This document shows positions 26,330 through 64,000 of a stretch of DNA of 64,000 nucleotides, in pieces. The stretch covers positions 124,001-188,000 of the forward strand of contig NW_026862606.1 in assembly GCF_026571515.1 (NCBI RefSeq), in the 5' to 3' direction. A model generated the notes under the pieces. That model was not told where the DNA came from. It saw only the letters and a list, made by a program, of their open reading frames with translations, and made no database searches. The stretch is from Ruditapes philippinarum (lineage: Eukaryota). How positions within the stretch are numbered: the first letter of the stretch is position 1; each line of letters starts with the position of its first letter. The translations under genes and the position numbers were made by a program.

Positions 26330-29067
26330 AGGGCCCGTCTAGTGGCCCAGTAGTGGACCAGAATGAGCTCAAATCAGTAAGTGACATTATTTGTGAAACG
26401 AATTCTGTTTTGTTTGATACATCTTCAGTTTTTTTATAGAGAATGATATAGATAAATCTGCCATGGCACAGAATATGATCTCTCTAAGTACTGAGACGAC
26501 AATAGTATCAAATAGTGACATAATGGCGTTCCTAATAAACTTGGAAACTAAAATTGTTAGTGTTGAGACGCGCCTTAATAAGCTTGATTTGTTAGAGCAC
26601 AAAGTTACTCAATTTGATAAAGACATTAAAACTTTGTTCACACAAACTTACGATCATAAGAAAGCTACAACTGATAGTTTACACGGATTAGACGATCGTG
26701 TGGAAAGGGTAGAATTTATCAGTGCTCAGTATCAATCGCGCATTGAATCTTTAGAGAAAGAGAATGATGATCTGAAGGACCAAGTAACCTACTTGAAATC
26801 TCAATCAATGCGCAATAATCTCATTTTCGGAGGATTCAAGGAAGAGGAAAATAAAAATCTTGATGACTTTATGCGCAAATTCTTTGTGGATAAGTTAAAA
26901 GTGGCACAGAGCATTGTTGCTTCTATGTAAAAAGAGCGAGTACATAGATTAGGCCAAGTTCAGGGTAAACCAACGGAGCCTCACAAAGTTGTCTGCAGAT
27001 TCGCTTATTTCTCAGACCGTGAAATAGTTAGACGACAAAATAAACTTTTAGATCACACAGATTGTTTTTGCACGAGCAATTACCTCCTGAATTGTCGCTA
27101 GACACTGTAAACTGTTACCGAAGTTGAAAGCTGCTATAAAGGATAAGAAGAAAGCCTGGTTTGTTTACGACACCCTAGCTTAACATAGACGGAGCCCCAG
27201 TTAAGTACGAATAGGATTTATTGGAGGATGAATTAACGTAGTATTCTAGTATGGAATTTAAATAGTTTATCTGACACAAAACGTTCTGATAAAGATTTTC
27301 TTTCCATTTTAACTGATAATGATATTATTGTTAAAAGTGAAACATGGACCGATAAAAAATCAAATGTGTCTATAGAAGGCTATCATTGCTATAATTTATA
27401 TCGAAAGTTCAAACATAACAGGGCAAAATGTGATAGTGGTGGAACACAAAGAAATCTTTCGGCGCGGCCTTATAGCCAAATTACCCGATTTCAATAGTCT
27501 TATTATAAGTGTGGATTGTAGTGATTTTAATAGAATAGATTACACAGTGGATATGTTTACAAACATCATTTCGGAAGTTGCGTCGCCTCTGTCCAAACGT
27601 GAATATAAAAATAATGTACCCTCCCAAGCAAATCTAAATATATGGTATGATAAGGAATGTGTAGACCATAAAATATTTTATAAACGCGCGTTTCACAATT
27701 ATAACAGTAACCAGTCCGAAATAAATAGAATTGAACTTTGCAAACAGCGCAAAACGTATAAATATAGTGCACAAGAAAAAACGCGCTTACAAATTGAAAG
27801 AAGGTAGGAAGCTTTCGGAGTTAAGAAAAAGTAAACCGCGTGAGTTTTGGAAATATTTTAAATGTAATACAGTAATCAGTCATGTCAAAATGATATAACA
27901 GTCGAGCATTTTAAAAATTATTTTTCAGATTTGTTAAATAATATTCCTACAACTGTTATAAATGAGGTTGAAATTTTAAACGATAATAATGATTTAAATA
28001 AAGGGTCACAGCACTGTAGAGGCTATATTTGCATTACATAACCTCATAGAACATGTTCAATTATTTCACAAGGGTCACGTTTGCCATGTGCATTTGTAGA
28101 TCTGCAAAAGGCCTTTGACTCCGTTTATCGACAGGCACTGTGGTTTAAATTGTAACATCTTGGGTTGGATGAAAACTTTTAAAAATGTTTAGGTCTATGT
28201 GTAATATAGTTAAGTCTTGTGTTAATCATTCTGATTCCTATTCTGACTTTTTCAATATTTCTATTGGATTGAGGCAAGGCCTAAATAATTCGCCAGTCAT
28301 GTTTGCCCTTTTTCTTGAAGACTTGGAACTTTTCCTGCAAGGATCTATTAAATCAGGTTTATCTATTTATGATATTTGCCTTATCACACTGCTATTCGCC
28401 GATGATATAGCAATTATTGGACATTCTGTTGAAGATTTGCAGGCCAATTTAGACAAATTATACGAGTACTGCCAGTACTGGGGCCTACAAGTTAACACAT
28501 CTAAGAGAGATAAATACAGAATCCCTAAAGAAAGCCCAACACGGCAAAATTGAAAATGTTGCAGGCTCGGTTTGATTGAGCCTGTTCATGGACGGTACTG
28601 GAAAGTGCAAGTTACCGTCCACGCCCCCTAGCACCGGCTTAAGCAGAATTCAACATTTAAACGTGAAATAGTAAAATTTTGAATTTAGAAACATCCGCAG
28701 ATGTGTTCATACGGCGGTTAAGACTAAGATAGTGGTGTTTCGTCGTAGTAAAATTTTGAATTTAGAAACATCCGCAGATGTGTTCATACGGCGGTTAAGA
28801 CTAAGATAGTGGTGTTTCGTCGTAGGGGTGGGCTAAAATGTAATGAGCGCTAGCATTTCAATAATGTGCCTCTTGAAATAGTTAATGACTTCAACTACAT
28901 AGGGGTGGTGTTTAATTATACCGGCTCATTCGTATTAAATAACCAGTACATAGTCGGAAAGGCCTTAAAGCCTCAAATATACTGCTAAATAATATAAAAC
29001 AATATGAACTTAGCCCTGCGCTTCAGTTGTTTGATGCTTTTGTGGGATATATTTTAAACTATGCATG
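26330..29067 (+). mobile_element. RTE-X-like LINE, left part (ORF1 and degenerate ORF2)
   Basis: ORF1 from 26463 has a coiled coil, SMRNNLIFGG (L1-type RRM) and a C-terminal ..IDG.. motif. ORF2 remnants: WN..L, ETW, DLQKAFD, RQGLNNSP, FADD. Cut at NYA|C by the Ginger element. Confidence 0.9.
28506..28795 (+). repeat. ~210-bp fragment of the 630-bp tandem unit inserted in the LINE RT, plus a 77-bp tandem duplication across the junction
   Basis: Nearly identical to 62770-62980. Interrupts VNTSK|TKIVVF and is flanked by TAAGA on both sides. Confidence 0.85.
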
Positions 29068-32642: not shown

Positions 32643-34630
32643 CAGTGAAACTTGTTATAGGTGACTTTCCGTGAGACCTTATCAAAAAGGTCACGTTTGA
32701 CTGGGAGTCTTTTAATTCTGGTCCACTTCAAGTGTTTCAATTTATTATTTGTTCTTGTAAATCCTGATGCCTGTCTTTTTCTTGGATTATGGTATTTAAA
32801 TTGATAATTTTAAGATATTCCCTATTTAGAATATGTATACATATTTGCATTATTATTTCTCTAATTCCTTTTACTTGTTTTGCTAACCATTTTGTCTGCC
32901 GTGATATCATATTACTGCACATCGGTTGATTTTTCAAATCCCGCGTTTATTCATCGGGTAATGGATAGGTTTATATGAGATTATATTTCCATCATATTTT
33001 ATTATTGTTTGGTAATACTAATAGGATCAGGGATTTTGAAATTTCGAAATTTTAATTAGGTTGGTAGCTCTTATTCGATTTTCTCAAAAGAAAAATTGTT
33101 CGTACGGATTACATAAAATGCACTCGTGCATCCACAGATCGTCCAATTTTGGACATATTAGAAGTTATGGTTAAATTGACTTAACTCATATAATAAAAGA
33201 GAAAAATAAACATTTTTTGCCATAGCACACAGTAAAGTCAACACGCTGGTAGGAAATCCAAGATCCGAAGCGCTAAAACATGTTAATGACTGAAAAATGC
33301 ATGAAAATCGTTTAATTAAGCCATATTATCATCACGGGGTGCAAACATTACGGTCGCTGGTGGCGTCAGACAGGGAGTCTTTTAATTGAGTTAGTGATTT
33401 TTGTGGTATTTTTAGTTTCAACTTTTTGGCACTTTCTAGTTGGGTGGTTCCAATATTCCTACTTGAATAATGTTGAACCACCCTTAGGATATGTTGCCTG
33501 CTTTTTAAATTTGTCTTTTGACGTCCTATCTGTGGTACGCAGGGTTCATAACCTCAGATCCCCTTTCAAAATTCCATTTTATTTAGTTCCGCCCATTGTT
33601 TTCTCGTTTAGGGCACACGCATTTTTTTACTTGGGGACCATATGCCGCTTTTCATGGAATGGCACTACCGTGTCACATTGAAGGTTCCATGATAACCGCC
33701 ATATGAACACATCTGCGGATGTTTCAAAATTCTAATTTTACCAGTTCATGTTAAATGTTGAATTCTGCTTAAGCCGGTGCTAGGGGGCGTGGACGGTAAC
33801 TTGCACTTTCCAGTACCGTCCATGAACAGGCTCAATCAAACCGAGCCTGCAACATTTTCAATTTTGCCGTGTTGGGCTTTCTTTAGAGATTCTGTATTTA
33901 TCTATTTTATGATCACGTCCGTGTTATTTGTGCCGTGTGGCGGCTGAAAAAAGTCTCCCCGTACATTTAATCAATGATGTTATATTTTCGATCCTTCAAG
34001 ATCGTTCAGCACGACATTATTGTTGTGCTTGTGGTATTTTTAGTTTCAACTTTTTGGCACTTTCTAGTTGGGTGGTTCCAATATTCCTACTTGAATAATG
34101 TTGAATCACCCTTAGGATATGTTGCCTGCTTTTTAAATTTGTCTTTTGACGTCCTATCTGTGATACGGAGGCTTCATAACCTCAGATCCCCTTTCAAAAT
34201 TCCATTTTATTTAGTTCCGCCCATTGTTTTCTCGTTTAGGGCACACGCATTTTTTTACTTGGGGACTATATGCCGCTTTTCATGGAATGGCACTACCGTG
34301 TCACATTGAAGGTTCCATGATAACCGCCATATGAACACATCTGCGGATGTTTCAAAATTCTAATTTTACCAGTTCATGTTAATTGTTGAATTCTGCTTAA
34401 GCCGGTGCTAGGGGGCGTGGACGGTAACTTGCACTTTCCAGTACCGTCCATGAACAGGCTCAATCAAACCGAGCCTGCAACATTTTCAATTTTGCCGTGT
34501 TGGGCTTTCTTTAGGGATTCTGTATTTATCTACTTTATATAGATCTTTTTTTACGTCAGGCGGTCGTAAACAGGGTCGTATACGGCAGGAAGTGGTCTAA
34601 ATCAGTGAGTCGCTAAGGCAAGGTTGACTG
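32643..34630. mobile_element. Old Tc1/mariner-type MITE in Ginger intron 1
   Basis: TA|CAGTGAAACTTG ... CAAGGTTGACTG|TA, imperfect TIRs with a TA TSD. Confidence 0.6.
33390..34535 (-). repeat. ~1.8 head-to-tail copies of the ~630-bp unit (reverse of 62765-64000)
   Basis: Duplicated blocks 33400-33900 and 34030-34530, reverse-complement homologous to the array at the window end. Confidence 0.95.
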
Positions 34631-38130: not shown

Positions 38131-38347
38131 CTAGAGGTTATCCTATATGCATGAGGGAATTTTTATGCAACAACATATTAAAACTGTGATGCTGGCCCGT
38201 TGACATGCAGAATGAAATTCTAGTTTCTATGCAAATTCAAACTTGAAAAGAAACATCTATCGGCTTGGGATGTACTAGAATTGTCTTTGACAATGCATCG
38301 TTGATTAAAATAAGTTTTGTAAAATGCTTTACATTTAAACATTTCAG

Positions 38348-40189
38348 GAAACAAGTTCATCGTCGTTATAACAGAATATTTGACTAAATGGGTAGAGGCA
38401 GAAGGGATTCCAGACAAGTCATCTGAAACTATACTATCAGTATTCACGAAGTTTGTCACGACACATGGTTGCTCCAGTGTATTAATAACGGATCAGGTGA
38501 GAGAATTCTGCAACGACTTGAATGAAAAGTTTTGCAATCAGTTTGGGATAGAATATAGAATTGCATCAGCATATCACCCACAAACAGGAGGACATACTGA
38601 AAGATTTAACAGGACTTTGTGCGATATGCTTGTGCACAGTGTAGATTTGTCGCAGAAAAATTGGGACATTAAGTTACCATACGTACTGTTTGCCTATAGA
38701 ACGTCTAAACATGAGTCAACGAAACAAACACCATTCTATCTTGTGTTTGGAGGGCACGCACGCTTACCAATAGAACTAGACTTAGCAATGCAATCGGATG
38801 ATAACCAAGACTCTGAATTGTCACTAAAGGAAAGAAAAGACTCGTTCATTTAACTGTCGTGCAACAGAAAAAAAGCATCGTCCAATATTAAAACGGCACA
38901 ATCGAAGCAGAAGAAATATTACGATTCTTCACTACCTAAAGACGATACAGCAGGTTTTGAAGTCGGCGACCAAGTACTTCTTCATAACACCAGAAAATTG
39001 ACGAGAAAAGGAGGGAAATTGGGTCTTAAATGGAAAGGACCATTCAAAATAACAAAAGTAACTGGAAAAGGCACTTATTTCCAAGAAGGAAAGAAAACAA
39101 GTGTACGTGGGAACAGACTGAATCGCTATAGGCGGAGTAATGACCATGCTGCTACATATAACACAGAAAAGCGACCAACTGAAGGTCCAAAAGATGACCA
39201 CAGTCTAATAAACAAAGAAACAGGAACTCAAGCAAACGAGAAAGCGTTTGAAAGACCTGCAAAAAGAAACAATAAATCTGACGACTGCAATCTTCCTCCA
39301 AAAAAGAGAAGAGTATCGAAAGAAGATGTTGCAACACAAGCTACCAATTCTACAGAATCTACTAATCAAGAACCCTTACCATTTCAATTCAGACCATCTT
39401 ATCATGAATGGCAGGAACAAATCTCGAGTGTATTTAAGTCGGCAGTCAAAAAACACGTATGCATCCGGTCCAGACAAATATATACGACGAGATGCCAAAC
39501 CAACTTAAACTGTAAACATGCGTGGGGATTGCAATTGTTTGTTTAGAACATTCAGTTATTTAGTTTTTGGCGTACAAACACATCATAGCTTGATAATGCA
39601 AGCGATTGTTGACTTCATGAAAGAAAACGAAACTCTAATGAAAGGCATTACACGTGATTCGGTTTCCAGATATCTAGACACATCAATGATGGCCTCCGAA
39701 AACACTTGGGGAACAGAAATGGAGATATTTGCTTTTGCAACTCTCACCAGAAGCGTTGTGTATGTTTATTCACAGTATGGCAGTAAGGAACAGTGGCGTT
39801 GGTTAGAATACAAACCGTTGGGCCTCATTGGTGGTAATTTAAGGGGTCTAGCAGTGTACATTCAGAATACCAGCGACCATTTTGTCCCGGTGCTAGAGGT
39901 AGATGGCGAAGAGTTCTCAAGAAAGCCATACAAACGAATTCGGAACCACATTCCAGAAAGATACCTCGCCCTTATAAGTGATGACCTATTAGATGCTGCG
40001 TTAGTGAATTGTTACGCAGACGAAGCCTTGCTATTAAAACTTGACAAAAGTGTAAAGACTGTATATGTGAAGGCTTTTACTAACACGCTTTACAATGTAG
40101 AAGGGCTGCGTGGGTTATCTGACGAGGTGGATGCAAATATTTTCAATACAGCATGTGACTGGAGCGATGTCGAAAACAAACCTAATTGA
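38348..40189 (+). pseudogene. Ginger transposase exon 3: integrase core, GPY/F motif, OTU-like protease domain
   Basis: tttcag|GA AAC AAG gives GNKFIVVITEYLTKWVEA..., then ITDQVREF, AYHPQTGGHTERFN, WKGPFKI and GDCNCLFR...WG...HF. Stop at 38851 plus frameshifts; AATAAA near 40208. Confidence 0.92.
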
Positions 40190-42780
40190 TAAGTGACACG
40201 TGCAAGAATAAATCAACAAATTAGTGGAGAACGATACAATTTATGCTAAATTTGGTTTAAAATATTGCATCTGATGAGCATAACAATGCGTGCTAAATAT
40301 ACCTTGTGTGATTTACTAACTAAAATAATAGCTTAAGATATAAACAGATGTGACATGTAGTTTTACCAAAGCACAGGTCAACACCCTGGGACGTTTTGTT
40401 GGATTCGCCTCTATATTCCATACAGTTTTAAATAAAAAGTCCTTTCGTTTATGAAATTGTCCTTATTATATACCGAACAACACTCCCGAACCACGGATAT
40501 ATAGGATCTCACATGAGTTATCATATGTGCAACGTGGCCGCCCAGCCACTGTTACAAAGGGATTCGTCTAAACCTGGCTTGAGGCTTTGATACACTTATT
40601 TCATAATGGAAGCTTGACAACGGAGGCGATAAACATTTAACACGTTTTATTTAACTAGAAACCTTAACAATGAAAATGGTAGCATATTGTAATTATTAAG
40701 AGTAAGTGTATAAGATGGTAATATAACGATAAATGTTCTGTTAAATAACAAGTATCCTTCTGTATATAAAGTTCACGAGTTCCTTCTTACTCTATAAAAT
40801 ACTTCAGTTCAACTTAAGTTAATAAATGTGAAAGAAATAGTCACTTATTTAGTATGTAAGTTATTCCACTGAATGTTTATGTTCAATTTGATATGATTAT
40901 GGTAGTGTCAGTTAGTTAAAAGTCAGCTTGATAACATCTTCACCAGTGTAAGAGAGCAACGTCACTTTATCACGTTATTGTTGATTAAGAATAAAGGTAT
41001 CTAAGTGTTCATCTTTTGTTCATCTCGGCGATTACACTTCTTCTTCTTCCCGGTTTTAAACATCAGTGAAAAAGGAGTACTCTATATATGTAAAAGGTCC
41101 ATAGTTTTTAGTGTTTCTCTTTATTTAAAGTACTCTTCAACAATACTTATATATATATATATATATATATACATGAGATAAGTATCATAAGTTAATCCCC
41201 TTTGACGGGACCGTAGAAATGAGAGGATTTTATTACTGCTTGTAGCACTGCATTGACCGTAGTATGTACGTTAAATTCTGAGGTGTTTGACGATAATGTT
41301 ACTTCCTCAATCTCTCCTGTAACTATAGTGAGGTGGTAGCTCCAAAAGAATAGTATCTGACGGTAATTGGTCAGATAGACGGTAGGGTACCACAAGAAGT
41401 AGTAGAGTATAGATTCTTCTCACAGATATAGTGGTAAACTGCAACTGGACGGTAAAGTAACACTTTGGATATCAACGATGAGCAAATTTCCACACACTTG
41501 TTATATATGCGATGGAATAGTATATAAAAAACCAATCACACTGATGACACTTGTAGAAATAATTCTATTTTAATATATTGACCGATATGGTTTTGTAGTC
41601 GATATTTAACTCGGATGGTATTATATGTTGTTGGGAATTTCAACAGCACCACTTCTTTATTAAGGTTAAAAACAGACTCCTTACTCAATAATTGTTGACG
41701 GTTCTCACATAGAAATTCATTCCTATCGGCGACACTGTAGCACTGTATATATATTTATCCTTAAATGACACTTTACGGTAATTAAAGACATCACACACTT
41801 GCAGAATTATAAATATTTGATTATGGATCAGATTATAAAAGGCACTTATACTGACGGTTATTCACAATAAAGATGACACTTAAGCACAATAAAACACTGA
41901 TGATCCCTTATGTATTTACTTAGAATATAATTAAGATGACGGTAACCAATACTGACGACGTTCCTCTCCGTTGGTAGTAACACTTTACATTAATTATATT
42001 TATGAAGCACTGATATTGATAAGATCATGTGATCTTTATTGCTGCATTAATTTCTTACACATTACCACACTAAGATATTTGTATATCCATGAAAAAGCAC
42101 TGACGGTTATATTGAACACTTCCTTTCGTTTCACATTCACTCACATAACGGCACTTTACCCTTAAAACAGCTTAATAATGACGGTATTTTAATCACTGAA
42201 GCACTGACGGTCCTTATGGTCATTGACGGTACTTTAATCACTTAAACACTGACGGTTGTACTGTTCTGGTCACTGACGGTAATTTCGGACCTTACTTTAG
42301 ATTAACGGTACGGAACACCAGTAGTTGATGGTATTTAAGACATTATTAACACATCCTTTGCTTACCAATTCATACACTTAACGGTACTATAACCGTATAA
42401 TGACTTATAATTGACGGTATTTTATCACTTAAACACTGACGGTTCTTCTGGTCACTGACGGTAATTTCGGACCTTACTTTATATTGACGGTAAAGAACAC
42501 TGACGGTATTTAAGACTTTAAGAAGGAATCGTAGGTGTTGTATATTACCTTACGGTTATGTATAATCGAAGAACTTCTCAGTAGACGGAGGGTGTTGGAT
42601 GACGGTTGACGGTAACGTAGGTTTACATAGTGCAGAAGACGGTTCCTGCCGGGAGACGGTAACCTTATTACGGTTCTTGTACCCTGACGGTTGTAATCAT
42701 AAGGTTCTATACCTGCATCATAACGATGGTATCCGTAATCTTTGAAGATTGCCAACACAAATGGTCCAGAGACTGGCTCC

Positions 42781-42812
42781 GACTATTTATAAGACTGAAC
42801 TCATGACGTCAC
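42781..42812 (-). promoter_or_regulatory. LTR promoter: CRE palindrome and TATA box (second copy at ~44612-44643)
   Basis: Minus strand GTGACGTCATGAGTTCAGTCTTATAAATAG, identical in both LTR copies. Confidence 0.65.
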
Positions 42813-43533
42813 AACAAGTGCTCGCTTCAAATAATTAGTTTTCGCGAGTATCAATTATGGCTGTCTTAACTACTTCTGCCGAAGTTGGCAAAGTCATTTT
42901 GGCTTGTTTTGGAGCTATTTCAAAGTCCACTTGAAGATGTAGATACTAAATATTGTCTTAGAAGCACGATATATAATTAAAGGGTAATTATTTAGGAAAA
43001 ACAGACATATATTTCTTTTATTAACATAAAAACGATTTTGTTTATATGTAAATTCGGTGGGTGGGGTAACGTTATCGCACGTTTTGCACTGTAACTCAGC
43101 TATTCCTTTACTGATTTAGACAAATAAGGTATCGTTGGAATAGTTGTAAGACAGACATCATATCAGAGTATATATCTGATAAATATTTCAATTCTAAGTG
43201 GCTTTTAAGAATTAAAATGTTCATAAAACAGGAAACAATAAGTTTCTGGTATAAATCGACCATTTCTTCTCATTCAATAAATATGGACTTGATAACTTAT
43301 GGTTATATATAAACATTAATTCTTGGAGGTTCGTTACATTGCCCCCTTCTAACTCTGGATTTGGTCCCCAAATTGGTTTGAGGTAAGTATTTAATGAGAA
43401 CACCAAAACTTGAACTTATACCCTTAAATAAACACGAAAAGAAAATGAACATGAACTTTATTTAATTGAACACAGTAACTACGCTTAAGTGTAAGTGTCT
43501 TCTTTTTCATGGTTTCACAGTTTGTGTAATGAG

Positions 43534-43896
43534 TCACTGATGAGCTGTGTACGTCCACCTCGGAAAAGCTAGGGGTGATACTACTGTTAGTTGTTCTAAT
43601 TTTGACACGATAGCCCTCTGAAGAGCACCTAGTTCGTAGTATTGGGCCTCCTGCAAACACTCCAATAGTTGACCAATAGTGTCTGGTAATGTTCTGGTGT
43701 CGGTGAACAATCTGTTTCTAAGATGGTTTATTACCATTCGAAAATGGGTGGGATCTCTATCGAATGTTAGGGTCCTCGACTCCCCCAATTCCCCATTTCT
43801 CAAAGACAGCGCAAACAGACTGGTTTGATCTAATGTTAGAGTTTGAATACTTGTTTCATAGTATGTGCCGCCTATGTTAAGAAAAACTCTATCCAT
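43534..43896 (-). CDS. KCTD-type (T1) BTB/POZ domain protein within the LTR element
   Basis: MDRVFLNIGG.YYETSIQTL...FDRDPTHFRMVINHLR...LP...EAQYYELGAL fits the KCTD BTB consensus. Intronless, no stops. The frame is open upstream to the deletion breakpoint. Confidence 0.85.
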   Translation of the reverse strand: MDRVFLNIGGTYYETSIQTLTLDQTSLFALSLRNGELGESRTLTFDRDPTHFRMVINHLRNRLFTDTRTLPDTIGQLLECLQEAQYYELGALQRAIVSKLEQLTVVSPLAFPRWTYTAHQ

Positions 43897-45826
43897 TTCG
43901 GAGACACTATATCCCCTTAAAGTGGTGTCTGAAGTTAGTCTATCCTCTTTAGTATCGGTGGCTTCACTCACATAACGGCACTTTACCCTTAAAACAGCTT
44001 AATAATGACGGTATTTTAATCACTGAAGCACTGACGGTCCTTATGGTCACTGACGGTACTTTATTCACTTAAACACTGACGGTTGTTCTGGTCACTGACG
44101 GTAATTTCGGACCTTACTTTATATTAACGGTACGGAACACTGACGGTATTTAAGACATTATTAACACATCCTTTGCTTACCAATTCATACACTTAACGGT
44201 ACTATAACCGTATAATGACTTATAATTGACGGTATTTTATCACTTAAACACTGACGGTTCTTCTGGTCACTGACGGTAATTTCGGACCTTACTTTATATT
44301 GACGGTACAGAACACTGACGGTATTTAAGACTTTAAGAAGGAATCGTAGGTGTTGTATATTACCTTACGGTTATGTATAATCGAAGAACTTCTCTTTGGT
44401 AATGAAGATCAGTAGACGGAGGGTGTTGGATGACGGTTGACGGTAACGTAGGTTTATATTATGCAGAAGACGGTTCCTGCCGGGAGACGGTAACCTTATT
44501 ACGGTTCTTGTACCCTGACGGTTGTAATCATAAGGTACTATACCTGCATCATAACGATGGTATCCGTAATCTTTGAAGATTGCCAACACAAATGGTCAAG
44601 AGGCTGGCCCCGACTATTTATAAGACTGAACTCATGACGTCACAACAAGTGCTCGCTTCAAAGAATTAGTTTTCGCGAGTGTCAAATATGGCTGTCTTAA
44701 CTACTTCCGCCGAAGTTGGCAAAGTCATTTTGGCTTATTATGGAGATATTTCAAAGTCCACTTGAAGATGTAGATACTAAATATTGTCTTAGAAGCACGA
44801 TATATAATTTAAAGGCAATTATTTAGGAAAAACAGACATATATTTCTTTTATTAACATAAAAAAGATTTTGTTTATATGTAACTTCGGTGGGTTGGGTAA
44901 CATTATCGCACGTTTTGCACCGTAACTCGGCTATTCCTTTACCGATTTAGACAAATAAGGTATCGTTGGAATCGTTGTAAGACAGACAGCATATCAGAGT
45001 ATATATCTGATAATTCTAAGTGGCTTTTAAGAATTAAAATGTTCATAAAACAGGAAACAATAAGTTTCTGGTATAAATCGACCATTTCTTTTCATTCAAT
45101 AAATATGGACTTGATAACTTATGTTTACATATAAACATTATTTTTTTGGAGGTTCGTTACATATGATATAAGATTTTATTAAACGAGCTCAAGAAAATGT
45201 TATATAGCGAGCCTCGGACGAGCTTTATAACATTTTCTTGAACGAGTTTAATAAAATATTTTATTTTTTGACAACGAATGTGAGATTCGTTTTATCACAT
45301 GAGTTAAAACATAAAAATAAAACATAGAAAATAAACCCTTTTTAACGCTATGAATACGCACGCTTTTCACGCCTTTTTTCTATATGGAATGTATTGGCGG
45401 AAATGAGTCACGTCAAAGTTATATTACACGTGTTAAATATAAAGAAATTCGTAATGATTATATTACATGAAAAACAAGCGATGTCATGTGATAAAATCAG
45501 ATCTAGCAAATTCAACGATAATGCTACCAAGACCCGTATCTATATTCACACAAAAGTAAAAACACTCTAGAGGCCACATTTTTATACGAATCTTTATAAA
45601 ATTTGGTCAGAATGCTAGTTAATTCGAGTGAGTTTAAAACTGAGTCATGTTAGGTCAAAATTAGAAGTATGTCCGTCCGTCTGTCCGTTTGTCCGTCCGT
45701 CCGTCTGTCTGTCTGTCTTCCGGTAATGTCAAACATCCCCGGGGACGTAGACATGGTTGCGCTTCAAAATCGCAAGAAGGTTTAAAGAGTAGTTTAAAAA
45801 GATTTAAAAGAATGTTTAAAAGGGTT

Positions 45827-53000: not shown

Positions 53001-55047
53001 ATGCAATCATATTATTTAAATTAATTATGTGCATAGGTCGAGAAACCATTTTAACAAACAGATGAAAGAAATTTTATTGTGTTCAAAATCTGAAGAACAT
53101 TTGCTTGTAATCATATAATTTGATACCAATTAAGATTAAACAGTATAAAGAGGATGAACATTGTGAAACAGTATACAAAGGATGGGATGAACAATGTACG
53201 TGAATATCAGTTACTTAACAGTGAAAGTCGTACGTATGTAGCGGCTTTAATATATTTTTGCTAGATTTTTGTTGCAGTATAATTTTTATTTGTTAGCAGC
53301 TGCATCATTTTAAACACAATCGGCCTTTGAAAAAAGTATCTTTTAATGTAATTCTTCCTTATATCTTCATAACATGGGCATTTAAATAAAAAGTGAAATT
53401 CATCTTCTAAGTCTAACAAATTGCATTACAAACAATATTTTTTCATTTCTAGGTATTCTATTTCTTGAATAACGACCGGTCTGTATCCTAAGTGAGTGTG
53501 CTGATAAACGAAGTTTTGTATAAAAACTTCTTTGATTAAAAGGTAAAATATCCAAATAAGTTTCATACCTTAATTACCTCTTGCTTAATATGTATATAAT
53601 TTTCAAGCACTGCACAATTATTTACTAATGCGTTCCAATCTTGTTTATAACAATCAACAATTCGTGTCTTAAAAATATTAGGAATTTTTTTCCAAATCAA
53701 CCGATCTAGGATTGAGGAAAACATCTGCAAATCCATAAACACTTAGTAATTTTTGAACGTTTGAACCCCAGTTTTTACGTCCTTTAATACAATTTATCAA
53801 ACCCTGTTCATATGTCTTTAGTAAAATAATATTATATGACTGTTGCAAGTTACACCAATATTTTACAATTCTTACGTATCTTGTTATATATAGCGGGAAT
53901 CTTCCTAACTAGTCGTAAACACTAGCACTTCCGGTTGAAATTCTAGCATTTTAAATACGTTTGCAAAACTTAAGATGGATTCTTTCAATTACCTTTGATT
54001 TTGTGTAACCCCATAGTTTTGATGAATAGTTTAATATAGCACCAACAAATGCATCAAATAACTGACATAACAGTAAGGGTTTTAATTTAAACTTATTACA
54101 TTTTACCAAGAGCTCATTCAGTGCCTTTAAAGCTTTACCTGATAAGTGCTCCTGATTCATTGAAAAATAACCGGTGTAGTTAAACACCGTTCCAAGATAA
54201 TTAAAATCATTTTCATTTTCAATGTTATGGCCATTGTAGGTCCAACTCTCGTTAGGTAAATAAACTCTGCACTTTCTAAACACCATGATTTTTGTTTTCT
54301 CCGCGTTGACCTCCAAACCCCAGGTATCACAATATGTGTGTAAAAGATCTAAACTTTTTTGCAATTCCGCAGGAGTCTTTCCTAGAATGACCATATCATC
54401 TACAAACAACAACAAAATTAAAACTATGACGTCTATTCATATACCAGGGCTTTCGGGCGATTGTAGATGCAATTCTAGATCCTCAACAAACATTACAAAA
54501 AGTAGAGGGGATATTACCTCCCATTGACGTAAGCCTAATGCATAACAGAAATAGTCAGAATATGAATTATATTTCTTAACACAAGATTTGACATTAACAT
54601 ACATATTTCTAATTATTTTAAGCAATTTGCCTTGTATCCCCTGTCTATAAAGCTTAAGCCATAAAGCATTCCTATATATACTATCAAAACACTTTTTAAA
54701 ATCTATAAAAGCTGCGTATAATCGTTTATTTTCATTTAGGAAATGTTGGATAATAGACAATAAAACAAAAGCAGCATCTACGGTTGAACGGCCTTTCATA
54801 AAACCGAACTGTGCGTCGAATATAACATTCTTGCTTTCACAGAAAGAAATAATTCTATTATTAAGTATGCTAATGAATATTTTTGATAAGCAACTAACTA
54901 AGGTTATGCCACGATAATTATTTACATCTTCCCTGTTGCCCTTTTTAAACAATGGTATAATCACACCTTTGTACCATTTTTCCGGATAAATACCAGAATT
55001 TAACACCGCGTTAAATGTATCACACAAATGACTAGCAATAATATTTA

Positions 55048-55990
55048 TTACCCCTCACTTTTTTCGTAATGCTAATTTCCCATAGGCCTCTGGGAGTTAT
55101 TCTTACTGTTAATGCAAGTGTACCACGTGACTACGAATTTTGTACTGTTACATAGGTAACAGTATTTTTAACAGTATAAAATCTGGTCACATGGTCTATT
55201 TTCTAAATAAAATGAAATAAAATGGCCGCCATTTTTCTCTCGATTCATTCTTATTTTTGACGATAGGGCATCGCCGAAGTAACTATTACTCTGATTAAAT
55301 TTAGTTCTTTGCAACCTAGAGTCCCTTTCGCGTATTAAATATCTTTTTGTTGAATAGTCAACAGGAAGCATCCGTTTTCAACGGAAGTAATTGTAATGTA
55401 AATAATTTTGTGTCAAACTGGAACATGCAGACAATTAAAGCATGCAACAAAGGATAATTTAACAATTTTAACCAGTAAAACGTTACAGATAGAGTTTGTG
55501 GACATACATCTGTAAGATATCATCGTTATTTTCTAAATGCACTTTGTCAAAAACCATGCGAAGAATATTCTGGATGTAGAAGGATCAGATTTCACAGATC
55601 ATAACCTTATAAATGGGTTAGTGTTTTGCTTTCTGAATAAAACACAGCTTATTTTACGTTTATGACTGGTAGATATCATCACTTGCTTAAAGAATAAAAA
55701 AAACAGCTTCTCAAGTAGGCCTACAGTGCACTTAAAACTTGCAAGGTAAGGACAGTTTAGTTATTGCTTCTCTTGGCTTATTTTTGTTACAGTTAGATTT
55801 AGTTGCCAAATTCAGATCATCACAGTATTTGTTCGGGGTAATAAAATAAATAACACATGGGTTTGTGGGTAACAGTAAAAATATCATCCCTCGTATAAAT
55901 ACTGTTACCCTCGGCTACGCCTCGGGTAACAGTATTTTCCTCGGGATGATATTTTTACTGTTACCCACAAACCCATGTGTTATTTATATA
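55048..55990. mobile_element. ~940-bp non-coding insertion ending in a ~138-bp near-perfect hairpin
   Basis: Interrupts LINE ORF2 between EYFMESI and IIASHL. Palindrome 55848-55985 is centred on GGCTACGCC. Confidence 0.75.
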
Positions 55991-62330: not shown

Positions 62331-62764
62331 GCATAATTTGCTTATGACCCTCAATCTCAGACTTACTGTCATACATGGAGATTTCGATAAAACGTCAGTA
62401 AAACCAAAATAATGTTATGTTTTCTTTCATTCCATTCAGCCAAACATAAATAGTTTATCATTTAACTCCATAATTAATATCCTACATTGATAAAAAATAA
62501 ATAAGAAAGACTATGTAGGAGTGGCTGCTACAGGTTAACTTTAATTTATTATTGAATAAATATACATTCATACACATCGACGACACTTGGGAAAAAACAC
62601 TTTAAACTGGTGAGAAGTGTCTCTGCACTAAACATTTGCTAATATAAAAGTCCCATGTCGTCAATCCGATCATTCAAAAAATTGTGGTTCCGAGTAATCC
62701 AATTGCACTGTATGGAATAATGTTTTAATACACACAAATATGTTACCTCAAAGTCAGAACCACA

Positions 62765-64000
62765 AAATAGATAAATACAGAATCCCTAAAGAAAGCCCAA
62801 CACGGCAAAATTGAAAATGTTGCAGGCTCGGTTTGATTGAGCCTGTTCATGGACGGTACTGGAAAGTGCAAGTTACCGTCCACGCCCCCTAGCACCGGCT
62901 TAAGCAGAATTCAACATTTAAACATTAAATAGTTAAATTTTTAATTTAGAAACATCCGCAGATGTGTTCATACGGCGGTTATCATGGAACCTTCAATGTG
63001 ACACAGTTCTGCCATTCCATGAAAAGCGGCGTATGGTCCCCAAGTAATATAAAGCTTGTGCCCTAAACGAGAAAACAATGAGCGGAACTAAATAAAATGG
63101 AATTTTGAAAGGGGATCAGAAGTTATGAAGCCTGCGTATCACATATAAGACGTCAAAAGACAAATTTAAAAAGCAAGCAACATATCCTAAGGGTGATTTA
63201 ACATTATTCAAGTAGGAATATTGGAACCACCCAACTAGAAAATGCCGAAAAGTTGAAACTAAAAATACTACAAGCACAACAATAATGTCGTGCGGAACGA
63301 TCTTCAAAGATCGAAAATATAACATCATTGATTAAATGTACGGGGTGACATTTTACAGCCGCCACACGGCACAAATAACACGGATGTGATCATAAAATAG
63401 ATGAATACAGAATCCCTAAAGAAAGCCCAACACGGCAAAATTGAAAATGTTGCAGGCTCGGTTTGATTGAGCCTGTTCATGGACGGTACTGGAAAGTGTA
63501 AGTTACCGTCCACGCCCCCTAGCACCGGCTTAAGCAGAATTCAACATTTAAACATTAAATAGTAAAATTTTGAATTTAGAAACAGCCGCAGATGTGTTCA
63601 TACGGCGGTTATCATGGAACCTTCAATGTGACACAGTCTGCCATTCCATGAAAAGAGGCGTATGGTCCCCAAGTAATAAAAAGCTTGTGCCCTAAACGAA
63701 AAACAATGAGCGGAACTAAATAAAATGGAATTTTGAAAGGGGATCAGAAGTTATGAAGCCTGCGTATCACATATAAGACGTCAAAAGACAAATTTAAAAA
63801 GCAAGCAACATATCCTAAGGGTGATTCAACATTATTCAAGTAGGAATATTGGAACCACCCAACTAGAAAATGCCGAAAAGTTGAAACTAAAAATACTACA
63901 AGCACAACAATAATGTCGTGCTGAACGATCTTCAAAGATCGAAAATATAACATCATTGATTAAATGTACGGGGTGACATTTTACAGCCGCCACACGGCAC
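62765..64000 (+). repeat. Tandem array of the ~630-bp unit (about two copies, running off the window)
   Basis: 62770-63397 repeats from ~63398 onward at high identity. Confidence 0.95.

Follow-up and report, generated by a model that had tools for sequence, protein, structure and literature searches.

A decayed long terminal repeat retrotransposon in the clam Ruditapes philippinarum with the 3' remnant of a zinc-finger-BTB gene beside its polypurine tract

We analyzed a 64,000-nucleotide stretch of the genome of the venerid clam Ruditapes philippinarum (contig NW_026862606.1, positions 124,001 to 188,000 of the forward strand; here called the window, with positions counted from its first letter) and found that a 4,634-bp minus-strand insertion at 40528-45161 is an internally deleted, dead copy of a long terminal repeat (LTR) retrotransposon. 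Ahead of its polypurine tract (PPT) lies the 3' end of a gene whose full-length relatives encode N-terminal zinc fingers, a charged linker and a C-terminal BTB domain. The explanation that we favor, with moderate confidence, is that the deleted retrotransposon possessed this zinc-finger-BTB gene natively as a third gene; our confidence is similar, if anything slightly higher, that the parent element, with gag and pol, bore the finger-linker-BTB gene as its third open reading frame (ORF).

The insertion shows structural features of an LTR retrotransposon as set out in PMC12440569, namely TG...CA ends, a target-site duplication (TSD) within the range of 4 to 6 bp, long terminal direct repeats and a PPT. 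Copies of the TSD, TATG, lie at 40524-40527 and 45162-45165, and the ends of the element read TGTAACG...CGTTGCA on the minus strand, an arrangement of the TG..CA type with a terminal inversion of only about 7 bp. On that strand, the complete 3' LTR, 2,811 bp in length and delimited by the same ends, occupies 40528-43338; the PPT, in which 15 of 18 bases are purines, abuts its start at 43339-43356; a 177-nt spacer without a poly(A) run (43357-43533) separates the PPT from the stop codon of the BTB gene remnant at 43534-43962; and the first 1,199 bp of the 5' LTR, recognized by alignment to the 3' LTR, survive as a deletion-cut stump at 43963-45161. An earlier note on this DNA, made from the letters alone, had placed the TSD, the termini and the PPT exactly where we find them, and its description of a 5' LTR cut at 43963 and joined directly to the BTB region, with the primer-binding site (PBS), gag and pol missing, corresponds to the same junction that we recovered.

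The direct repeats, 42136-43338 and 43963-45161, differ by 36 mismatches (18 of them transitions) in 1,182 aligned columns and by 5 indels, giving a Kimura two-parameter distance of 0.031; a comparison that included 10 extra flanking bases counted 39 mismatches. The 3' LTR contains internal repeats of 45 bp and about 180 bp, together with a (TA)12 run at 41148-41171, and its unduplicated part, 40528-42135, is also LTR: an internal repeat crosses 42136, and the ACCGTC motif discussed below continues into this part with 7 copies against 0.18 expected. It is from these two observations that we derive a 3' LTR of 2,811 bp and a 5' LTR reduced to a 1,199-bp stump. The mismatches between the LTRs are unevenly distributed, with 1 to 4 per 200 columns in the part that holds the motif array, whereas two blocks closer to where the LTR begins have 10 per 200; constraint or conversion is a possible reason for the low value in the array.

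These comparisons bear on the explanation that no retroelement is present at all and that a local tandem duplication or an assembly artifact surrounds a host BTB exon, which we regard as the most improbable of the explanations considered. In its favor are the absence of gag, pol and PBS, the length of a 2.8-kb LTR, and the fact that the combination of TSD and termini is not rare when taken by itself, with 4 matches in the window at one mismatch or fewer, 1.34 expected and a count of 4 reached by 5 of 100 shuffles. Yet 36 substitutions and 5 indels between the repeats are not those of an assembly echo, and both direct repeats start with the minus-strand TG terminus, one adjoining the TSD and the other the PPT. 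The flanking host DNA also speaks against it, in that a hairpin runs in register across the whole 4.6 kb: the 32 host bases to the left of the insertion (40496-40527) mirror the continuation of the right-side hairpin arm at 22 of 32 positions, or 21 of 28 when the TSD is set aside. Among the 127,969 32-mers of the window, this score is attained only by the insertion site and by the self-match, and the end of the element itself reaches 10 of 32 in the same test; a loose gapped comparison of the flanks was equaled by 133 of 9,040 control 50-mers. Since the mirror image is in register across the insertion, the whole unit split one host palindrome, the right part of which extends over 45166-45296 with hairpin arms at 45166-45208 and 45222-45264. 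We take this palindromic repeat to resemble the nonautonomous repeats that are common in molluscs; an Rfam search gave a single match, on this hairpin and at chance level (E 0.12), and a tRNA scan returned none.

At a single junction, at 43960-43965 where 43963 is joined to 43962, the 5' LTR breaks off after its position 1,199 and gives way to the middle of a coding sequence. It is not a clean splice junction. The match of the Ruditapes relative described below reaches one codon into LTR-derived bases and so suggests an overlap of about 3 nt, as a short-homology deletion or template switching might leave. No PBS, gag or pol is found in this copy, but the end of the 5' LTR and the bases that followed it lie in the deleted part, and the absence of a PBS therefore says nothing about the parent. 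Some other readings of the locus were rejected. The plus-strand orientation would call for a TGG-type PBS after 43338, and there is none; the minus strand has a PPT at that place. An integrase-OTU frame at 38323-40189 is not the pol of the element, as it is on the opposite strand and beyond the TSD. An origin of the copy from spliced RNA was discarded, given that the nearest GTGAGT donor hexamer, 8 to 10 nt before the junction, is retained and that no pyrimidine-rich acceptor occurs between 44100 and 43890.

The remnant comprises 142 codons and a stop, with the BTB domain at about 43621-43887. The stop-free, intronless sense frame that contains it, 43534-43998, matches Pfam BTB_2 with an E value of 3.3e-12 and ends 177 nt before the PPT, in keeping with the earlier proposal of an intronless T1-type BTB frame about 180 nt from that tract; BTB_2 is the only Pfam match of the remnant and its closest relatives, and no envelope family was matched. 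Among proteins of solved structure, KCTD17 and KCTD5 match the remnant best (E about 1e-8), a structure model of it (pLDDT 84.6) has the BTB chains of KCTD5 and KCTD17 as its top fold matches, and identity to BTBs of this type is 25 to 35%. When the 142 codons on the gene side of the junction served as the query, 3 of 24 similarly long candidates matched, as did 1 of 653 longer ones. The nearest annotated protein, from Ruditapes, is 89% identical, 208 amino acids (aa) long and named a BACURD3-like Cul3 adapter; a Mercenaria relative is 68% identical (202 aa), a JGI fragment is 90% identical, and an unnamed ENA protein of 443 aa is 71% identical. Three relatives that cover the front of the gene match up to the junction (tblastn matches start from 43965 or 43959) and run on upstream into charged, low-complexity sequence, so that one junction truncates LTR and gene alike. 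The in-frame ATG at 43896 is not conserved, being replaced by I, A and T in the three covering relatives. Thus, the frame that had been described as uninterrupted is indeed free of stops, but its 5' end has been removed by the LTR junction, and the idea of an accessory gene consisting of a BTB domain only is not supported, for the ORF is the truncated C terminus of a zinc-finger-linker-BTB protein.

The open state of the frame was rejected as a sign of selection: in simulations at half the LTR divergence, the probability of no stop was 0.75 and that of neither stop nor frameshift was 0.36, and by neutral expectation the frame stays open in 36% of cases. Seven ATGs precede the in-frame ATG in the putative 697-nt leader, the first of them opening a frame of four codons, and no acceptor is evident, for which reasons this copy is probably silent and not translated; expression of a BTB-only protein was discarded as unlikely in view of the same seven ATGs.

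A search of 1.84 billion representative sequences returned 1,010 matches, and the statements about the family that follow concern the best 150 of these. About 60 divergent clusters with less than 50% mutual identity have the zinc-finger-linker-BTB layout, and their gene models start at many different points. Full-length members consist of a C2H2 finger, a CxxC..HxC finger, a conserved helix, a charged linker of about 40 to 690 residues (16 proteins measured) and one C-terminal T1-type BTB; in protein P0004, for example, a CxxC..HxC finger is followed by a linker and by a BTB at the end of the chain, and the N-terminal module is predicted with a block pLDDT of 84 to 94 over residues 1 to 90 of P0060. 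In a quick tree of 150 of the 152 BTB rows (2 short rows were dropped), the remnant falls in a group of 6 rows (support, 98), and a separate group holds 55 rows (support, 88). One BTB is present in 59 of the 60 proteins of both groups, and the protein ends no more than 40 residues past the last BTB motif in 50 of these 60, compared with 14 of the 91 proteins outside them. P0004 and P0006, which are the nearest full-length relatives of the remnant, were left out of a profile of the N-terminal module, and the profile still recovered both (E values of 2.6e-11 and 4.3e-11; 186 proteins), so that the group of the remnant is connected with the family by evidence other than the tree. The members that bear names come only from Ruditapes and Mercenaria. 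Two Mercenaria proteins, P0162 and P0163, carry 200 to 620 extra N-terminal residues before the fingers and are possibly domesticated or multi-exon copies or fusions between gene models. Searches of the ESM Atlas gave a weak match for the full protein and, for the N-terminal module, hypothetical or C2H2 clusters only. A viral source was considered and rejected, the matches in BFVD being giant-virus and poxvirus BTBs that are no closer than the KCTDs (20 to 26% identity for the top ten); the published link between KCTD1 and Crypton elements concerns another domain, DUF3504 (PMC3212892). The number of members per cluster was also set aside as evidence of copy number, as it does not discriminate the family from ordinary genes.

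The family could also be made up of host genes, and the element could have taken the 3' end of one member of an expanded host zinc-finger-BTB family in a single or lineage-limited capture, in which template switching or recombination put this piece in place of the element's interior. We consider this unlikely, although it is the most serious of the rival explanations. It is in agreement with the abrupt passage from LTR into the middle of a coding sequence, where some 3 nt overlap, with the annotation of the named relatives as host genes in Ruditapes and Mercenaria, with the multi-exon appearance of two Mercenaria models, and with the failure to find a fusion to pol in 35 long matches. However, the parent of a recent capture should be more than 90% identical, and no such relative appeared in the protein searches even though only 3% separates the LTRs; the host species may be one that lacks annotation in the collections searched. 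Furthermore, the end of the frame is tidily placed ahead of the PPT and is not followed by a poly(A) run, and some 60 clusters with less than 50% mutual identity and varied starts of the gene models would be unusual for an ordinary host family. The earlier note had suggested the capture of a host mRNA; a canonical KCTD mRNA is an unlikely source because KCTDs have the BTB at the N terminus (PMC5664961), but a zinc-finger-BTB gene of the host is a possible one.

It might also be supposed that the BTB is a C-terminal extension of Pol, comparable to a chromodomain, and not a separate gene. The BTB does occupy the place expected for the end of pol, and its frame is open up to the junction, but the relatives lead upstream into a charged linker and zinc fingers and not into an integrase, and the BTB was paired with reverse transcriptase (RT) or integrase in 0 of the 35 long matches. 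More fully, no RT, RNase H or integrase domain was found beside the BTB in these 35 matches (top 8,000 candidates scored) or in a further 54 plus 12 scanned proteins, and we hold a Pol extension to be very improbable.

If the third gene is native, its product may act in more than one way. An earlier proposal of an adaptor or decoy, applied now to the full-length protein, shares its origin with the explanation that we favor and differs in mechanism: a ring of BTB domains would recruit or sequester Cullin-3, and the fingers would select a target, either protein or RNA, for instance a silencing factor. We regard this as doubtful. The fold is closest to the BTBs of KCTD5, KCTD17, KCTD13 and KCTD10, which are Cul3 binders (PMC5664961); a fold search with a full-length relative was filled by BTB matches, with KCTD chains (Z 12 to 15) above those of ZBTB type (Z 8.6 to 11.6). 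Mobile elements are, moreover, known to carry domains of the ubiquitin system such as OTU and Ulp1 (PMC2836005). Nevertheless, identity to those KCTD BTBs is only 25 to 35%, KCTD16 has the same fold without binding Cul3 (PMC5664961), and action through ubiquitination leaves the polarized motif array of the LTR unexplained. Prediction of four BTB copies gave a ring with a score of 0.81, against 0.00 for the best control, with 100% contact agreement and a pLDDT of at least 88; the mark used is one that 21 of 30 solved pairs and none of 23 single chains attained and, among eukaryotic proteins, 17 of 29 and 0 of 30, respectively. The predicted ring shows likeness and not binding, and it may derive from the memory of the predictor because similar complexes have already been solved.

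The array in question is made up of ACCGTC motifs in one direction, 22 sense and 0 antisense copies at 41359-42691 in the 3' LTR and 16 copies at 44007-44522 in the 5' LTR stump, both on the minus strand and downstream of a TATA box. Shuffling gave a mean of 0.5 and a maximum of 3 copies in 500 trials, and the longer form ACCGTCA was absent from the rest of the window outside the LTR. By analogy with a plant system considered below, a BTB ring with several finger arms might bind this array and favor transcription of the element, a proposal that we put forward tentatively and would not yet call probable. The LTR also contains candidate expression signals: a putative promoter at 44616-44642 in the 5' LTR, composed of the CRE-like palindrome TGACGTCA followed by TATAAAT, has a counterpart of the same sequence at 42785-42811 in the 3' LTR, and a candidate first mini-exon at 44544-44593 (counterpart, 42713-42762), all on the minus strand, would run from a presumed start site through a first ATG at 44552 and three codons to a donor-like CAG|GT, which we offer as a lead only. 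Donor-like hexamers occur at 0.0006 per base. Among the protein models, eight begin 7 or more residues ahead of the first finger, and in six of these F or L followed by Q is found at the same two positions, the two exceptions being Mercenaria models with long extra N termini; P0095 and P0073 also fit by eye. The finger-BTB gene probably starts at a splice acceptor, because gene callers that read through a pyrimidine tract and CAG would yield F/L-Q. ORF3s other than env in the LTR elements of rotifers are typically expressed from spliced messages (PMC5408684).

The element inserted, with a 4-bp duplication, into the palindromic host repeat, and we suggest that a deletion removed the remainder of the 5' LTR together with the PBS, gag and pol and the first part of the third gene. 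The parent lineage would carry this gene natively in the env position and express it from a spliced RNA starting in the LTR; the product, in which two zinc fingers and a helix at the N terminus are followed by a long linker, charged and disordered, and by a C-terminal T1-type BTB, would assemble into a ring through the BTB, and the several zinc-finger arms of the ring could then bind the one-directional motif array of the element's own LTR and so promote or protect its transcription, whether or not Cullin-3 is recruited. In its widest form, the proposal is that a diverse lineage of LTR retrotransposons in bivalves supplies a sequence-specific regulator of its own, a counterpart by analogy of the VANC anti-silencing proteins of plant transposons, and that dozens of clam proteins now annotated as KCTD-like or left uncharacterized are its cargo; this is speculative, and we consider it improbable as a whole.

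Several findings weigh against this reading of the element. The gene was seen in its DNA setting at a single locus, and none of 199 pattern matches in prokaryote genomes was confirmed. The branch that joins the 6-row and 55-row groups is weak in the quick tree (79), and family clusters, with 1 to 25 members, overlap ordinary genes (8, 19 and 33) in size. The absence of pol-domain fusions fits a separate ORF but provides no link to pol. P0162 and P0163 are without the F/L-Q pattern, as host multi-exon genes might be, and the donor-like site, which was noticed post hoc, fits six of nine positions of the consensus. The ACCGTC array arose in part by internal duplication and may bind a host factor or act as RNA. 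Cullin-3 binding, finally, is common but not universal among KCTDs (PMC5664961, PMC4431850).

Much depends on which origin is correct. Most of the third genes known from LTR elements encode envelopes or membrane and nuclease enzymes. If the reading that we favor is true, a zinc-finger-BTB third gene would be an accessory gene of a regulatory kind, for which the LTR itself provides a candidate target, a pairing that is directly testable, and a large unnamed BTB family and some of the "Cul3 adapter" annotations in clams would derive from mobile elements. The suggestion in the earlier note that annotated KCTD-like genes could be transposon cargo is plausible, the 89% identical Ruditapes relative with its BACURD3-like name being a case in point. 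If the family consists of host genes, the locus would be an ordinary decayed element with a captured fragment, accompanied by an undescribed protein architecture.

The window as a whole has a GC content of about 33% and reads as animal DNA, and its remainder includes LINE remnants. LINE-type reverse transcriptase frames lie at 14498-17491 (minus strand; RVT_1 E 2.8e-37), spanning an assembly gap of N, and at 54437-55054 (minus strand; E 2.9e-19). On the plus strand, 38323-40189 holds broken frames for an integrase core, SH3/GPY-F and an OTU protease, interrupted by a stop codon at 38851-38853 and by a change of frame near 39509-39546, in the layout of a Ginger1-type DNA transposase (PMC2836005). 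An intronless 229-codon frame at 22628-23317 (plus strand) has, by eye, a start resembling a signal peptide, a dibasic KR site and a hydrophobic Cys/Gly-rich tail of about 50 residues; it had no match in Pfam and resembles the precursor of a secreted, possibly antimicrobial, peptide. A unit of about 630 bp occurs in tandem pairs at 33401-34538 and 62761-64000, 98% identical within a pair and 94% identical between the two sites, which are inverted, and a 220-bp piece of it is located at 28502-28720.

Comparison with known systems places the element near LTR retrotransposons that bear an additional gene. No report of a BTB-bearing ORF in an LTR retrotransposon was found in the literature consulted; Repbase, Dfam and subscription journals were outside its scope, and the family could be recorded there. 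BTB is mentioned 0 times in the main text of PMC10886601, PMC13524379, PMC6238403, PMC8905726, PMC5408684 and PMC10294476, and the high-copy BTB genes of a fungus are discussed with Mutator-like elements and not within LTR elements (PMC8647823). The LTR families of bdelloid rotifers, with ORF3s other than env that encode GDSL, DEDDy, coiled-coil or transmembrane products (PMC5408684), are alike in having an extra sense ORF before the PPT; BTB is not mentioned among them, whereas the clam ORF combines zinc fingers, a linker and a BTB, and with pol deleted from the clam element, the position of its ORF can be read from the PPT side only. Gypsy/Metaviridae elements, including errantiviruses, share the TG..CA ends, the 4-bp TSD and the PPT (PMC12440569, PMC13524379), but the third ORF of an env-carrying errantivirus encodes an envelope glycoprotein, and the clam remnant has only BTB_2. 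The TGTAA 5' end fits the TGTNR pattern with a 4-bp TSD that is typical of, though not exclusive to, Gypsy (PMC2836005), and no pol is left by which to place the element. TRIM/Helenus elements also combine two LTRs, a PPT and a 4-bp TSD in animals with the absence of gag and pol (PMC10886601), but they keep two whole LTRs and a PBS, whereas the clam copy has a cut 5' LTR, a coding remnant and no PBS. Ginger1 elements have terminal inverted repeats of 40 to 270 bp and a CCGG/CCGT TSD (PMC2836005), unlike the inversion of about 7 bp and the TATG duplication seen here.

At the level of the protein, ZBTB transcription factors have a dimeric N-terminal BTB and C-terminal fingers of the C2H2 type. 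They resemble the clam family in uniting a BTB with C2H2-type fingers, but the clam proteins have the reverse order and a BTB of T1 type. KCTD5, KCTD17, KCTD10 and KCTD13 share the T1-type BTB fold, with a predicted ring through the usual interface, but in KCTDs an N-terminal BTB is followed by a C-terminal domain (PMC5664961), whereas in the clam family the order is reversed and the BTB comes last (50 of 60 proteins). A functional parallel may be VANC of the VANDAL transposons of Arabidopsis, a transposon-encoded binder that stands beside a dense, same-orientation motif array in noncoding DNA (PMC5735166), as the candidate binder of the clam element does. VANC21 binds such arrays in its own transposon, and the short motifs of VANDALs spread by tandem repeats within the noncoding DNA of the element (PMC5735166). 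VANDALs are plant transposons of another kind, and we claim no sequence kinship with them; the parallel is one of arrangement, from which binding of the ACCGTC array by the zinc-finger-BTB product of the clam element is put forward as a hypothesis.

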